Part shown: one piece after another, positions 2,551-61,068 of the stretch
How the letters are laid out: every line of letters starts with the position of its first letter
How positions within the stretch are numbered: the first letter of the stretch is position 1
Assembly: GCA_048939625.1 (NCBI GenBank)
Contig: JBHLPH010000003.1
Coordinates: 72,353 to 136,352 of the forward strand
Reading direction: 5' to 3'
Length of the DNA: 64,000 nt
Source: Promethearchaeota archaeon
GTDB lineage: Archaea > Asgardarchaeota > Hermodarchaeia > Hermodarchaeales > Hermodarchaeaceae
Position numbers and translations under genes: made by a program
Notes under the pieces: generated by a model
What the model was told of the DNA's origin: nothing
What the model saw: the letters and a program-made list of their open reading frames with translations, nothing else
Databases searched by the model: none

Positions 2551-2710
2551 TACTGCAAGTCTCTCTGCCAATCTTGATAAGATTCCAAGTTTGCCACTGG
2601 CAAACGAAAAAGAGAGGACCGTATAAACTGCGGTTTCTATCCTTCAAGGCTGAGAGGAAACCTTTTTGTGGAAGCACTCGTTTCAACCTTTCTCCGTGCC
2701 GGGGCACCGT

Positions 2711-2865
2711 GCCGGGATTATGCTGGTAATTCCTTACCGGCTCCCGAAGGTGTAAACTGGTATTTGCCCAGGCGCAATGGTAGCATTGAAGCCTGTGGAA
2801 TCCCATTTGTCCAGGTGGGATGCAGAAAGCTTTAGGTCGGGGTTCGAATCCCTGTCCCGGCACCA
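2711..2865 (+). tRNA. trnH: tRNA-His(GUG) with three introns: 2719-2748 (8/9), 2756-2777 (15/16), 2799-2827 (37/38); CCA encoded
   Basis: Spliced sequence GCCGGGA TG GTGT AATGGTA GCAT T GAAGC CTGTGGA GCTTT AGGT CGGGG TTCGAAT CCCTG TCCCGGC A CCA is a 71-nt canonical cloverleaf. Each intron has a 4-bp central helix flanked by 3-nt bulges. Adjacent to hisS. Confidence 0.9.
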
Positions 2866-2919
2866 TTTTTCAATCCAAAGGAGGATAATAGATAGAAATT
2901 CGAATACGAGTTGAAAAAC

Positions 2920-4404
2920 ATGAAACGTGGAAAAGAGCTAGCCGTAGGTGGGTTTCGCGACTACTACCCAGAGCTTTACCAGAAAATCGATGTAATATTG
3001 CGCGCCTTCCGTGAAATCCCTAAGCTCTTCGGATATATCGAATACGAATGCCCAACGGTAGAACCTCTGGAATTATACGAATTGAAATCGGGACCTTCCC
3101 TCGTTGAAGAAACTTTCAAAGTAACTGATCGGAAGAAGCGACGACTTGTATTACGTCCAGAAACCACACCGTCGTTAGCGAGGATGCTTGCAGTTCAACA
3201 ACAAAATTATCCACGTCCCATCCGATGGTTTTCCATTTCACGTGTATTTCGAGACGAAACTCTACAACGAGGACGCGTCAAGGAATTTTGGCAATTAAAC
3301 GTTGACATACTGGGTACAGAGGACGTCTCCGCTGATGCAGAAGTGATTAATGTTCTTGCAGCCATCATTCTGAGCTTAAACTTCACACCTGAAGACTTTG
3401 TTATTCGAATTAATGATCGCCGGCTCATCCAGAGCTTCATCGAATCCCTAGGTCTGCCAAATTATGTTGAGATTATCCGAGTGTTAGATCGTCGTGAAAA
3501 ACTCTTACAAGAAACTCTCATTACTAAACTTACAAAGGCGGGTACCCCACCAAAAAAAGCGGAAGAAATCGCACTCAAACTCCGTCATTTCTTTGTTGGT
3601 AAGCAGAAAGATATACCCAAACTTCCTCGCACAAAGCAAATAGAAGAATTGAAAAAACAGCTTCCACGTCTTCAACGCGACGCACTAATGAAAACCTTAT
3701 CTGATGCAGGTGTCCCTCAAGATGCTGCCCAACAACTCACAGATTTCTCAGCTATTCGAGGAACCCCAAAGGAGTTTCTTCAAAGAATGAAAGAGGTCAA
3801 ACTAGATGAAGCTACAAAGAAAGCCTTAGAACCCCTTAGACAGCTAGCAGAACAGTTCGAAGATTTAGGATTAACGGAAGTCTGCGAATTCGATGCCGGA
3901 ATTGCCCGGGGCCTTGATTACTATACAGGAATCGTCTTTGAAGCTTGGGATCGAAGTAGTGAATTACCTCGTGCAATTGCAGGAGGAGGTCGTTATGATG
4001 ACCTTGTTGGCATTTTTGAGGGACAGCGCTTGCCAGGTACTGGATTTGGTTTTGGTGAGACTGTTATCATGGAGCTTGCTGAGGAAATGGGCATACTCTC
4101 ACCACCTCCTCCACCAGCAGAAGTTTATCTCGCTCCTGTCTCCAAAAAGCAACTAAGCGTTTGTCGAGAAATTGCCACACAGCTTCGAGCAGCAGGAATC
4201 CGAACCATTTTCAATGGTTTCTCATGGTCCTTGTCTAAGCGTCTCGATGATGCCAGTAAAAGACAGGTACCACTCGCCGCAATTGTCGGACCGCGCGAGC
4301 TTGAGCAAAAATCAGTAAATGTCCGAAATATGAAAAGCGGGAAAGAGAAAATTGTGAAAATAAGTGCCCTTGCAGACTATGTTAAAAGTACTCTGGATTC
4401 CTAA
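2920..4404 (+). CDS. hisS: Histidine--tRNA ligase with expanded insertion domain
   Basis: GFRDY, LRPETT, motif 2 FRDETLQRGRVKEFWQ, ARGLDYYTG, GGGRYDDL, C-terminal anticodon-binding domain. Confidence 0.95.
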   Translation: MKRGKELAVGGFRDYYPELYQKIDVILRAFREIPKLFGYIEYECPTVEPLELYELKSGPSLVEETFKVTDRKKRRLVLRPETTPSLARMLAVQQQNYPRPIRWFSISRVFRDETLQRGRVKEFWQLNVDILGTEDVSADAEVINVLAAIILSLNFTPEDFVIRINDRRLIQSFIESLGLPNYVEIIRVLDRREKLLQETLITKLTKAGTPPKKAEEIALKLRHFFVGKQKDIPKLPRTKQIEELKKQLPRLQRDALMKTLSDAGVPQDAAQQLTDFSAIRGTPKEFLQRMKEVKLDEATKKALEPLRQLAEQFEDLGLTEVCEFDAGIARGLDYYTGIVFEAWDRSSELPRAIAGGGRYDDLVGIFEGQRLPGTGFGFGETVIMELAEEMGILSPPPPPAEVYLAPVSKKQLSVCREIATQLRAAGIRTIFNGFSWSLSKRLDDASKRQVPLAAIVGPRELEQKSVNVRNMKSGKEKIVKISALADYVKSTLDS

Positions 4405-57723: not shown

Positions 57724-58725
57724 TCATTTCTTTGCTGTTGTACTGATATAGACAATTTCGGGCGGTTTCTCTGGTAAGGGTTTCGGTCGACTTGGTACTC
57801 GAAGACGTACTAGTCGTCGTGATGGTCCGGGAATGGAACCATCGATGAGAAGGAAGTCAGATTGGAGATTGCCATAGTGTGGAAATCCGCCTGCAGGTGT
57901 GATATCGTCGCTCTTTTCTCCAATACGCAATAAGCGTTTATTATATTCTGTTCGTTGATGGAACCCCATCTGTCCTCCACGTGCAACTGTATACATAATA
58001 CGATTCGGGTGCCAAGGACCGAGTGTTCCTACTGCACGAACGCGCTTGCGTGATTTATGTGGGAGTTTTGACACACCGAAGCGTTTGATAACACCTTGAA
58101 AACCCTTGCCCTTGGTGACTGCGACAACATCCAGAAATTGGCCTGGTTGAAAGATGTCTCGCACACGTAGTTCTTGCCCGAGGAGCCCTTTGGCATGTTC
58201 AAACTGATCTTTTATGGATCCACCGAAAATCCCGCACTCAATTATTTCAGGCGTTTTCTTTCCAATTCCCGCTTGTTTCGGTTGAGTCAAAAGACTAACT
58301 CGAAATTCCTTAATGTCATCTAAGGATTTACTTAATTTACCCATAGATGCTTTCGAATCATAATCTTTCGGCCAGGGCAAAACTCGTCGAATATCACGTG
58401 GAAGATTTTCTATCCATGTTTCACCTAAAACTTTCAATTCTCCGCCGTTTTGACCATGTGCGCGAATTGATGCAACCAACATTGGGGGTGTATCTATTAT
58501 GGTCACGGCCCGACTGACTTCTCGGCCAAACCATGGACTATTTGGTTTGTCATCGATGAGAATCACATGCGTCATACCGACTTTGTAGCCAGCGAACCCC
58601 AGAATATGGGGTTCTGTTGCTTGTTCAGGCCAATGACGAATCCGTCCACTAACCCGACGCACCCGTTTGCGCGGACGATAGGAAAGGCTACCATGTCTTG
58701 GGGAGCTTTGTTTTCGGTGACCCAT
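57724..58725 (-). CDS. rpl3: 50S ribosomal protein uL3
   Basis: PRHGSL, GYKVGMTH, TKGKGFQG, GQMGFHQRTEYNK. Confidence 0.98.
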   Translation of the reverse strand: MGHRKQSSPRHGSLSYRPRKRVRRVSGRIRHWPEQATEPHILGFAGYKVGMTHVILIDDKPNSPWFGREVSRAVTIIDTPPMLVASIRAHGQNGGELKVLGETWIENLPRDIRRVLPWPKDYDSKASMGKLSKSLDDIKEFRVSLLTQPKQAGIGKKTPEIIECGIFGGSIKDQFEHAKGLLGQELRVRDIFQPGQFLDVVAVTKGKGFQGVIKRFGVSKLPHKSRKRVRAVGTLGPWHPNRIMYTVARGGQMGFHQRTEYNKRLLRIGEKSDDITPAGGFPHYGNLQSDFLLIDGSIPGPSRRLVRLRVPSRPKPLPEKPPEIVYISTTAKK

Positions 58726-58956: not shown

Positions 58957-59068
58957 GCCGGGATAGCCAAGTGGTTACGGCGCGGGCCTTGAGAGATGCC
59001 TTTAAGTATCATCCAAGGTAGCCTGTGACTTTTGGGTCGCAAGGGTTCGAATCCCTTTCCCGGCGCCA
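58957..59068 (+). tRNA. trnS: tRNA-Ser(UGA) with canonical 37/38 intron (58994-59019), long variable arm, G73, CCA encoded
   Basis: GCCGGGA...CGGGC CT TGA G^intron^A GCCTG...GGTTCGAATCC...TCCCGGC G CCA. Strict BHB: CTTG/CAAG helix with AGA and GTA bulges. Confidence 0.95.
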
Positions 59069-59619: not shown

Positions 59620-61068
59620 ATGAAAGAAAAGTTGGTACAACAAGACGAGTTTCGATGGTGGCTTGATAAGACAGCCCGGCCTCGAATGAATGTCGGTGCG
59701 AAGATTATTGGTTCAAAGAAAATCATCAACACCTTAGAGGATGCAGCTATTGAGCAATTGACTAATGTTGCCACACTTCCAGGGGTTATTGAGCCCGTTC
59801 TGGCGATGCCTGATGCTCATTGGGGATACGGGCTTCCGATGGGAGCGGTTGGAGCCTTTGATGCTGAAGATGGGATAATTTCTGCGGGATGTACTGGATT
59901 TGACATAAATTGTGGCGTTCGATTAATCCGGACAAACTTAACACATGATGAGGTAAAACCCAAGTTACGACAGTTAGTTGATGAACTATTTAATCGGGTT
60001 CCTGCAGGTGTTGGATCAAAAGGTAAAATTCGGTTGAGTGAAAGGCAATTTAATGACGTTATACGACTTGGTGCACGATGGGCAGTAGAAAATGATCACG
60101 GTGTGGAAGCCGATTTAGTACATTGCGAGGAGGGCGGAGGAATGGAGGGAGCTGCTATTACAGCTCCACAAATTTCTGAAAAAGCGAGACGTCGTGGACG
60201 CCCCCAATTAGGAACTTTAGGCGCTGGAAACCATTATCTTGAAGTTCAAAGGATCGAAAAAATCTTTGATGAGACTTCGGCTCAAGTCTTCGGTCTTGAG
60301 AAGAATCAAGTTGTTGTTATGTTACATTGTGGCTCACGGGGTTTTGGTCATCAAGTTGCCACTGATTATCTAGAGCGGATGGAGGCTGCAGTTAAAAAAT
60401 ATAATATTTGGTTACCTGATCGACAGCTAGTTTGTGCTCCTGCTACCTCACAGGAAGGGCAGGACTATTATGCGGCAATGAAGGCAGCAGTGAATTTTGC
60501 GTTTTGTAACCGGCAAGTTATGACGCATTGGATTCGCGAAGGATTTGAAGCTGTTTTTAAGCGGGACTGGGATTCCATGGGTTTGAATTTGATTTATGAT
60601 GTAACACATAACATCTGCAAGTTTGAGACCCATGTCCTAAATGGTTCGAAACGTGATTTGTATGTTCACCGGAAAGGTGCAACTCGTTCCTTTGGTCCAG
60701 GGCACCCAAAGATTCCACAAGACTATCGTTCAGTTGGTCAACCAGTATTAATTGGCGGTTCCATGGGTACGGCGTCTTATGTATTGGTTGGTACAGAACA
60801 AGCAATGAAAGAAACTTTTGGCTCCACATGTCATGGTGCAGGTCGGGCAATGTCACGAAGAGCAGCTATTCGAAAATACCATGGACGAGATGTAAAGCAC
60901 GCTCTCGAATCTAAAGGCGAGGTGGTTCGGTCAATCAGTACAAAGATCCTAGCTGAAGAAGCGCCTAATGCATACAAGGATGTACATGTTGTGGTTGATT
61001 CAGTGCATGGTGCCGATATCTCACGAAAAGTGGCAAGCCAAATTCCCTTGGGTGTTGTGAAAGGCTAA
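59620..61068 (+). CDS. rtcB: RtcB tRNA-splicing ligase
   Basis: MPDAHWGYG, DINCG, GTLGAGNHY, HCGSRG, HRKGAT, STCHGAGR, EEAP.AYK. Confidence 0.97.
   Translation: MKEKLVQQDEFRWWLDKTARPRMNVGAKIIGSKKIINTLEDAAIEQLTNVATLPGVIEPVLAMPDAHWGYGLPMGAVGAFDAEDGIISAGCTGFDINCGVRLIRTNLTHDEVKPKLRQLVDELFNRVPAGVGSKGKIRLSERQFNDVIRLGARWAVENDHGVEADLVHCEEGGGMEGAAITAPQISEKARRRGRPQLGTLGAGNHYLEVQRIEKIFDETSAQVFGLEKNQVVVMLHCGSRGFGHQVATDYLERMEAAVKKYNIWLPDRQLVCAPATSQEGQDYYAAMKAAVNFAFCNRQVMTHWIREGFEAVFKRDWDSMGLNLIYDVTHNICKFETHVLNGSKRDLYVHRKGATRSFGPGHPKIPQDYRSVGQPVLIGGSMGTASYVLVGTEQAMKETFGSTCHGAGRAMSRRAAIRKYHGRDVKHALESKGEVVRSISTKILAEEAPNAYKDVHVVVDSVHGADISRKVASQIPLGVVKG

Follow-up and report, generated by a model that had tools for sequence, protein, structure and literature searches.

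A probable three-intron tRNA-His(GUG) gene with a 7-nt exon, and a leader copy of its acceptor strand, in an Asgard archaeon of the class Hermodarchaeia

A short stretch of DNA upstream of hisS in an archaeon of the class Hermodarchaeia raises two questions: whether a locus in which standard programs recognize no tRNA can be the tRNA-His gene of the organism, and how a transcript with an intron just behind its 5' acceptor strand could be folded for splicing. The locus lies in a 64,000-nt stretch of contig C38 of the genome G000; this stretch is referred to as the window, and coordinates without a prefix are positions in it. On the unspliced locus ARAGORN calls no tRNA, and with the Rfam tRNA model it reaches 20.1 bits, below the cut-off of 29, as the preliminary description of this DNA, made from the sequence alone, had predicted for standard finders. 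That description had also called for a search for other tRNA-His genes, and no second one was found in the 88%-complete, 2.3-Mb genome, whether with Rfam, with ARAGORN set to permit introns or with the exons as BLAST queries. We conclude that the locus is very probably a functional single-copy tRNA-His(GUG) gene with three endonuclease-type introns, a judgement that covers the gene model and the splicing mechanism together.

In Asgard archaea, introns interrupt 92–95% of the tRNA genes, and over half of the genes have several of them (PMC11291895, 2024); a census preprint of 2026 reports up to five introns per Asgard tRNA gene as well as D-arm introns missed by tRNAscan-SE. The present gene, with three introns, two of them at non-canonical positions, in an Asgard genome, adds one case to the multi-intron Asgard tRNAs already published in these two works. 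It resembles them in the Asgard host, in its several endonuclease-type introns at non-canonical positions, in D-arm introns missed by software and in the two EndA paralogues. Its own traits are that it comes from Hermodarchaeia, has an intron at 8/9 and an exon of 7 nt, and carries the leader copy. The name Hermodarchaeia is absent from the main text of the 2026 preprint, where introns at the junction of acceptor and D-arm are only a few cases classed as 'other', and the word 'leader' has no occurrence in that main text.

Only 17 tRNAs in G000 exceed the Rfam cut-off, so that most tRNA genes of this genome must be hidden in the same way; ARAGORN makes 28 calls, which are partly wrong. D-loop introns are common in the genome, for example at C28:8396 and C38:103343 (minus strand), and some T-arms are interrupted. 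CCA is encoded at all 28 tRNA loci of G000 that have an uninterrupted T-arm. The sole tRNA of the window that passes Rfam (48.3 bits) is the tRNA-Ser(UGA) at 58957–59065, which has one canonical intron. An ARAGORN call at C38:74790-75217, tRNA-Leu(cag) with a 340-nt intron, is an artefact that stems from the tRNA-His gene's 3' half. Another locus, G000:C36:31765-31965, is a tRNA-like stretch of 201 nt closed by an acceptor stem (GGGCCGAT...TCGGCCCACCA), from which neither ARAGORN nor splice-motif enumeration produced a cloverleaf. Permissive scans of the whole genome, one for 8/9 introns and one for further His anticodon arms, returned hundreds of matches in coding sequence and were discarded for stricter versions.

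Layout of the gene and its splice motifs

The gene occupies positions 2711–2865 of the plus strand, with four exons, three introns and an encoded CCA; all of the following features are on the same strand. Exon 1 (2711–2718; tRNA positions 1–8; DNA GCCGGGAT, RNA GCCGGGAU) is identical in 16 relatives and is followed by intron 1 of 30 nt at 8/9 (2719–2748). Exon 2 (2749–2755; positions 9–15) is a micro-exon of 7 nt, GGTGTAA (RNA GGUGUAA), which is invariant in 16/16 family sequences. It is separated by the 22-nt intron 2 at 15/16 (2756–2777), found in 16/16 family genes, from exon 3 (2778–2798; positions 16–37; 21 nt), to which both the sequence and the ARAGORN call on the spliced form assign the anticodon GUG. 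Intron 3, of 29 nt, is at the canonical position 37/38 (2799–2827), and exon 4 (2828–2862; positions 38–73; 35 nt) contains the 4-nt variable loop, the T-arm, the 3' acceptor strand and the discriminator A73. The encoded CCA (2863–2865) runs into a run of T, a likely terminator (2863–2870 for both together). Upstream, a purine-rich box and a T-rich TATA-like element, GAGAGGAAACCTTTTTGTGG, at 2652–2671 form a putative archaeal promoter; this assignment comes from conservation, the box being kept between both genera of the family as AGAGGAAAsCTTTTTGTG with a fixed spacing of 35 nt from its T-run to the first acceptor-strand copy. A minus-strand open reading frame at 2495–2866 has no Pfam match and was taken as spurious.

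Removal of the three introns in silico leaves 71 nt, which ARAGORN identifies as tRNA-His(gtg). All four stems of the spliced 71-mer pair, and U8, A14, G18G19, the T-loop UUCGAAU and a GUG within a 7-nt anticodon loop are in place. The preliminary description had proposed introns at 8/9, 15/16 and 37/38 and exons of 8, 7, 21 and 35 nt that join into an exact 71-nt cloverleaf; its positions agree with the sequence base for base, the cloverleaf is the one that ARAGORN accepts, and the comparison with relatives described below bears out the introns.

Each of the three introns can form a central helix of 4 bp, in which four exon bases ahead of the 5' bulge pair with four intron bases ahead of the 3' bulge, with two 3-nt bulges on opposite strands, the core of a bulge-helix-bulge motif. 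When at least two pairs are asked of a flanking helix, intron 3 has both (a strict hBHBh' motif), intron 2 has h' only (a relaxed HBh' motif) and intron 1 has a weak h together with an h' of 8 bp; for introns 2 and 3 this geometry is as first described. In intron 1 the central helix consists of C3–G6 of the acceptor strand with CCCG (2743–2746), and the bulges are AU|U and AA|G. The central helix CGGG/CCCG and the bulges were thus given correctly at the outset, and the inner stem required adjustment: in this species one A-U pair and a 1-nt bulge separate the 8-bp stem from the central helix, which it directly abuts in the sister-genus allele G017. The outer helix GUGC/GUGU of intron 1 is weak, with three G-U pairs. 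Intron 2 combines the helix GUGU/GCGC, the bulges AA|A and AA|U and the inner helix CUGG/CCAG without any outer helix. It is noted that its cut is compatible by sequence with 13/14, 14/15 or 15/16, because AA is shared at both ends; the product is the same, and the bulge rule selects 15/16.

Comparison with relatives

Permissive enumeration of splice motifs at the locus gave 32 products acceptable to ARAGORN, including two-intron tRNA-His parses and other isotypes. The fold alone is therefore no proof of the gene model, and it is comparison with relatives that, at the level of sequence, settles the structure of the gene. Twelve complete orthologues from 12 species of the same genus, with 81–95% identity over the locus, made up the comparison set, and all three introns are kept in 12/12 of them. 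The invariant columns are 69/71 in the exons, 5/32 in intron 1, 18/25 in intron 2 and 10/29 in intron 3. The splicing-competent structure is paired in 96.2% of the cells of this alignment versus 37–45% when the partners are slid by 1–3 columns, and 0/500 shuffles matched the observed pairing values. Ten pairs have changed on both sides, 8 of the 9 in the intron 1 hairpin and 2 of the 6 in intron 3. The central helices of introns 1, 2 and 3 are paired in 100%, 100% and 95.8% of the cells over the 12 species, with changes on the intron strand only.

In the sister genus, intron 1 is precisely missing from one allele (G015), intron 3 from another (G017), and both from two more (G016 and G018). The junctions of these intron-less alleles read GCCGGGAT^GGTGTAA and CCTGTGG^AGCTTT, which are exactly the predicted junctions, and we regard these alleles as the most decisive evidence for the gene model. 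No allele without intron 2 was found in the family, and BLAST for Asgard relatives reached only a few diverged tRNA-His genes. The case for intron 2 rests on its geometry, its conservation and the logic of the D-arm, and is therefore different in kind from that for introns 1 and 3. The spliced D-arm, GUGUAAUGGYAGCAU, is found in identical form, as one contiguous stretch, in a tRNA-His of Iainarchaeum that lacks introns. No variation was seen in the inner helix of intron 2, and in its central helix a U-G pair has become U-A by a change on the intron side (GCGC to GCAC) in G008 and G016.

The same observations bear on a gene with two introns only, in which 2719 to about 2768 would be a single long intron, GGTGTAA would be no exon and the 5' strand of the D-stem would be the GCGC at 2772–2775. 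ARAGORN accepts such parses, of 76–81 nt, as tRNA-His, and the Rfam alignment also takes GCGC as D-stem. However, GCGC/GCAU contains a C-A mismatch and leaves surplus bases between acceptor and D-stem, while GUGU/GCAU pairs at 4/4 positions. The GCGC to GCAC change would worsen a GCGC D-stem yet preserves the central helix of intron 2, and GGTGTAA stays invariant in 16 genes despite variable flanks. The D-arm known from intron-less homologues is the one that three-intron splicing predicts. We consider a two-intron gene very improbable. A decaying pseudogene or tRNA-derived relic, whose cloverleaf would be the outcome of freely chosen cut sites, is least probable of all: it would account for the failure of standard finders, the many alternative splicings in silico and the lack of spliced RNA in metatranscriptome contigs, yet it is at odds with exons that are near-invariant across 12 species at 81–95% overall identity, with covarying intron stems, with precise intron losses in relatives, with the failure to find a second His gene and with the conserved hisS synteny.

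Processing enzymes, the 5' end and RNA data

The gene for histidyl-tRNA synthetase, hisS (2911–4404, plus strand; 497 aa; Pfam tRNA-synt_His 4.5e-50 and HGTP_anticodon), starts 46 nt downstream of the tRNA-His gene on the same strand, and this order is kept in 17/17 loci of the family, covering both genera. The genome encodes RNase P RNA and an RtcB RNA ligase, the expected joiner of exons (59755–61065, plus strand, or G000:C38:132107-133417; PF01139, 569.9 bits). The RtcB gene is located about 700 nt downstream of tRNA-Ser(UGA).

Two EndA paralogues are present. A protein of 186 aa is closest to the catalytic alpha subunit of Aeropyrum pernix (3p1z_B, 4.8e-47) and has the Tyr/His/Lys triad; across the Crenarchaea-specific loop the alignment is free of gaps, with K44 kept and R46 replaced by K. 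The 198-aa paralogue matches structural beta subunits and is without the catalytic His. By these alignments, the endonuclease is predicted to be of the (alpha-beta)2 type with the broad-specificity loop. Broad substrate specificity has been traced to the loop and K44, and D-loop introns are among the sites cleaved (PMC3241643). The genome thus encodes the kind of enzyme that, as argued in the preliminary description, relaxed motifs need.

At its 5' end the gene has U at −1 (2710; A in G008), and the discriminator A73 is at 2862; no G-1 is encoded. A G-1 opposite N73 is the hallmark of most tRNA-His and is not strictly defining, exceptions being known. No Thg1 homologue was found in 19/19 family genomes. 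In the Asgard families f8 and f20, tRNA-His encodes G-1 with C73. The lineage would either use a tRNA-His that lacks G-1 or add G-1 by an unrecognised enzyme.

In the contigs of four metatranscriptome runs no spliced joints were found, only unspliced relatives. Small shares of the window were present in five RNA runs. The contigs from the four runs may be carried-over DNA and have no joints, and so are evidence neither for splicing nor for transcription. One contig of 191 nt from the wetland metatranscriptome X17, corresponding to 2682–2872, matches the entire unspliced precursor of a relative. Its ends, close to the T-run and to where transcription would be expected to start, hint weakly at a discrete primary transcript; other contigs extend beyond the T-run.

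The leader copy and the order of processing

The second question arises from intron 1. Its central helix uses acceptor bases 3–6, and therefore no acceptor stem can exist while that splice site is presented. Upstream of exon 1, the leader contains a copy of acceptor bases 1–7 at 2696–2704 (plus strand, GU-GCCGGGG; core 2698–2704, GCCGGGG), which complements the 3' strand UCCCGGC-A-C. The copy sits 13 bases upstream of exon 1, and the two copies form a 13-nt tandem duplication. It was found in 13/13 complete His precursors with intron 1 and is absent from 3/3 alleles without it; it should be mentioned that such counts across related genomes are not independent observations. That copy 1 is itself the true exon 1 was ruled out, since no U8 follows it and no splice-motif register fits. 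A splice motif between leader and trailer was ruled out as well, the transcript ending in the T-run right after CCA.

The same arrangement is seen in a second gene, tRNA-Leu(CAA) (G000:C42:40365-40594), which has four introns, one of them at 8/9. Its leader copy, GCGGGGG, lies 42 nt upstream, is followed by two covarying leader hairpins, and is invariant, amid variable flanks, in 18/18 family genomes of two genera that have the 8/9 intron; the tRNA-Leu(CAA) of G002 has neither the 8/9 intron nor the copy. A scan of G000 found a leader copy at two tRNA loci only, His and Leu-CAA, and these are the only two convincing 8/9-intron genes of the genome; the copy was found at 0/27 other tRNA loci with an uninterrupted T-arm. 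Beyond this family, an 8/9 intron is found again in the tRNA-His genes of the Asgard families f8 and f20 (G025; G058, G066 and G073); its CCCG strand is identical, its hairpins are unrelated, and these genes too have leader copies. By sequence comparison, the leader copy co-occurs with the 8/9 intron in tRNA-His of three Asgard families and in tRNA-Leu(CAA) of this family. A possible exception is the tRNA-His of G049 (G049:C265, ~57900-58060), with an intron at about 9/10 and no leader copy. The first bases of that intron partly repeat the end of the exon (GGGAT GGGAT), and the parse used has an A-C mismatch in the D-stem. The tRNA-His of G025 (G025:C78:19006-19150) has a 22-nt intron at 8/9, an apparent second one at 29/30, two leader copies, and a tRNA-Ala close behind. 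A pattern match in G330 proved to be protein-coding sequence and no tRNA.

These genes also qualify an early remark that 8/9 is an unfamiliar intron site: it is not in the lists of PMC4090602 and PMC4033280, and it recurs here in tRNA-Leu(CAA) and in tRNA-His of two other Asgard families.

In partition-function folds, the His copy pairs with the 3' strand (2855–2863) at P=0.69–1.00 and the Leu copy at P=0.90–0.99, and pairing of exon 1 with the 3' strand is never seen. The central helix of intron 1 has P=0.72–0.99 in 10/13 His precursors. When the copy is scrambled, the central-helix probability of the His precursors drops to 0–0.43 and the acceptor stem is restored; in the Leu precursors a scrambled copy leaves the modelled pairing of exon 1 unchanged. 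A low acceptor-stem probability is also obtained for 5/17 control precursors, and the predictions are to be read as noisy. From these models, we give close to an even chance to the view that the copy acts as a decoy, which would hold the 3' acceptor strand and free exon 1 for the splice motif. We tentatively favour, at somewhat under an even chance, the broader reading that the copy is a functional cis-acting folding device, which is inherited along with introns located right after the acceptor strand (8/9, 9/10) and which, once splicing is done, is displaced and then cut off by RNase P.

A different reading, which we regard as a distinct possibility of lower probability, accepts the gene and its introns and takes the copy as functionless: a remnant of the ancestral exon 1, or a tandem duplicate created when the intron module was inserted, retained by linkage. 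The 13-nt tandem duplication of the His copies fits this reading, and relative to the TATA-like box the copy is located exactly where exon 1 is found in the intron-less alleles of both His and Leu-CAA. The sequence of the His copy is no more conserved than the remaining leader, and the noise of the thermodynamic predictions is also in keeping with this reading. A functionless copy is harder to reconcile with the 7-nt Leu-CAA copy, in which no base differs between 18 genomes of two genera despite highly variable flanks, and with the changes seen in the His copy (C4 to U, G7 to A), which preserve pairing with the 3' strand. Copy and intron have, moreover, been lost jointly in two genes, whereas recombination between the repeats would delete the copy alone, and the arrangement persists in three Asgard families with intron hairpins unrelated in sequence. 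Partial duplications of tRNA genes at the sites of integrative elements likewise present a short direct repeat of the tRNA 5' end. However, the repeats here are 4 to 35 nt apart, enclose no cargo, lie within one transcript and track the intron, not an element.

The following pathway can be proposed. The primary transcript would be a precursor of about 175–190 nt. If the copy is a folding device, its pairing with the 3' acceptor strand would close the precursor, and exon 1 would stay available to the intron. The (alpha-beta)2 EndA would cut after the second base in each of the six 3-nt bulges, and RtcB would ligate the four exons (8+7+21+35 nt). Once intron 1 is gone, exon 1 would take over the 3' strand; RNase P, acting after exon joining, would remove the leader, and its cleavage would make the switch irreversible. 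Cutting and joining, the succession of steps and whatever role the leader copy has are here inferred from the sequence and its modelled folds.

That splicing precedes RNase P cleavage is a reasonable assumption. The preliminary description had gone further and proposed that intron 1 pairs with the acceptor strand and competes with intron 2 for exon 2, which would impose an order on the two introns. The first part holds, in that intron 1 pairs with acceptor bases 3–6 and excludes the acceptor stem. An obligatory order of introns 1 and 2 is not required, because the three motifs have their cores (central plus inner helix) in separate columns, where they can form side by side. Competition for exon 2 would arise only if intron 1 uses an outer helix, as in the minimum-free-energy fold, where the leader CACC pairs with GGUG.

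A close parallel outside the Asgard archaea is found in Thermoproteales, the classic hosts of multi-intron tRNAs whose motifs are relaxed. In Pyrobaculum islandicum, tRNA-Pro(UGG) is interrupted at 25/26, 37/38 and 56/57, and position 3/4 is another intron site in this order (PMC4090602, PMC4033280). These tRNAs share with the present gene the three introns per gene, the combination of BHB and relaxed HBh' motifs and an (alpha-beta)2 EndA with the Crenarchaea-specific loop, and their 3/4 acceptor-stem intron clashes with the mature fold as intron 1 does here. They belong, however, to another phylum; the 7-nt internal exon and the leader copy are particular to the gene described here, and neither 8/9 nor 15/16 is listed in those two papers. 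In a targeted search of the literature, no account of a leader copy of this kind was found.

The gene extends the Asgard multi-intron phenomenon to Hermodarchaeia and to the junction of acceptor and D-arm, with an exon of 7 nt. The 2026 census preprint leaves open the origin of archaeal tRNA introns, and the pairing of leader copy and intron bears on how such introns arise: the copy may record the origin of the intron, as a module of exon 1 copy plus intron inserted downstream of the ancestral exon 1. How an intron whose splice motif uses up the acceptor stem can be processed would find a concrete, testable answer in a leader pseudo-acceptor strand that is gained and lost together with the intron. 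For the organism itself, the gene would supply the tRNA-His that is missing from the standard annotation of this genome and of the whole genus.
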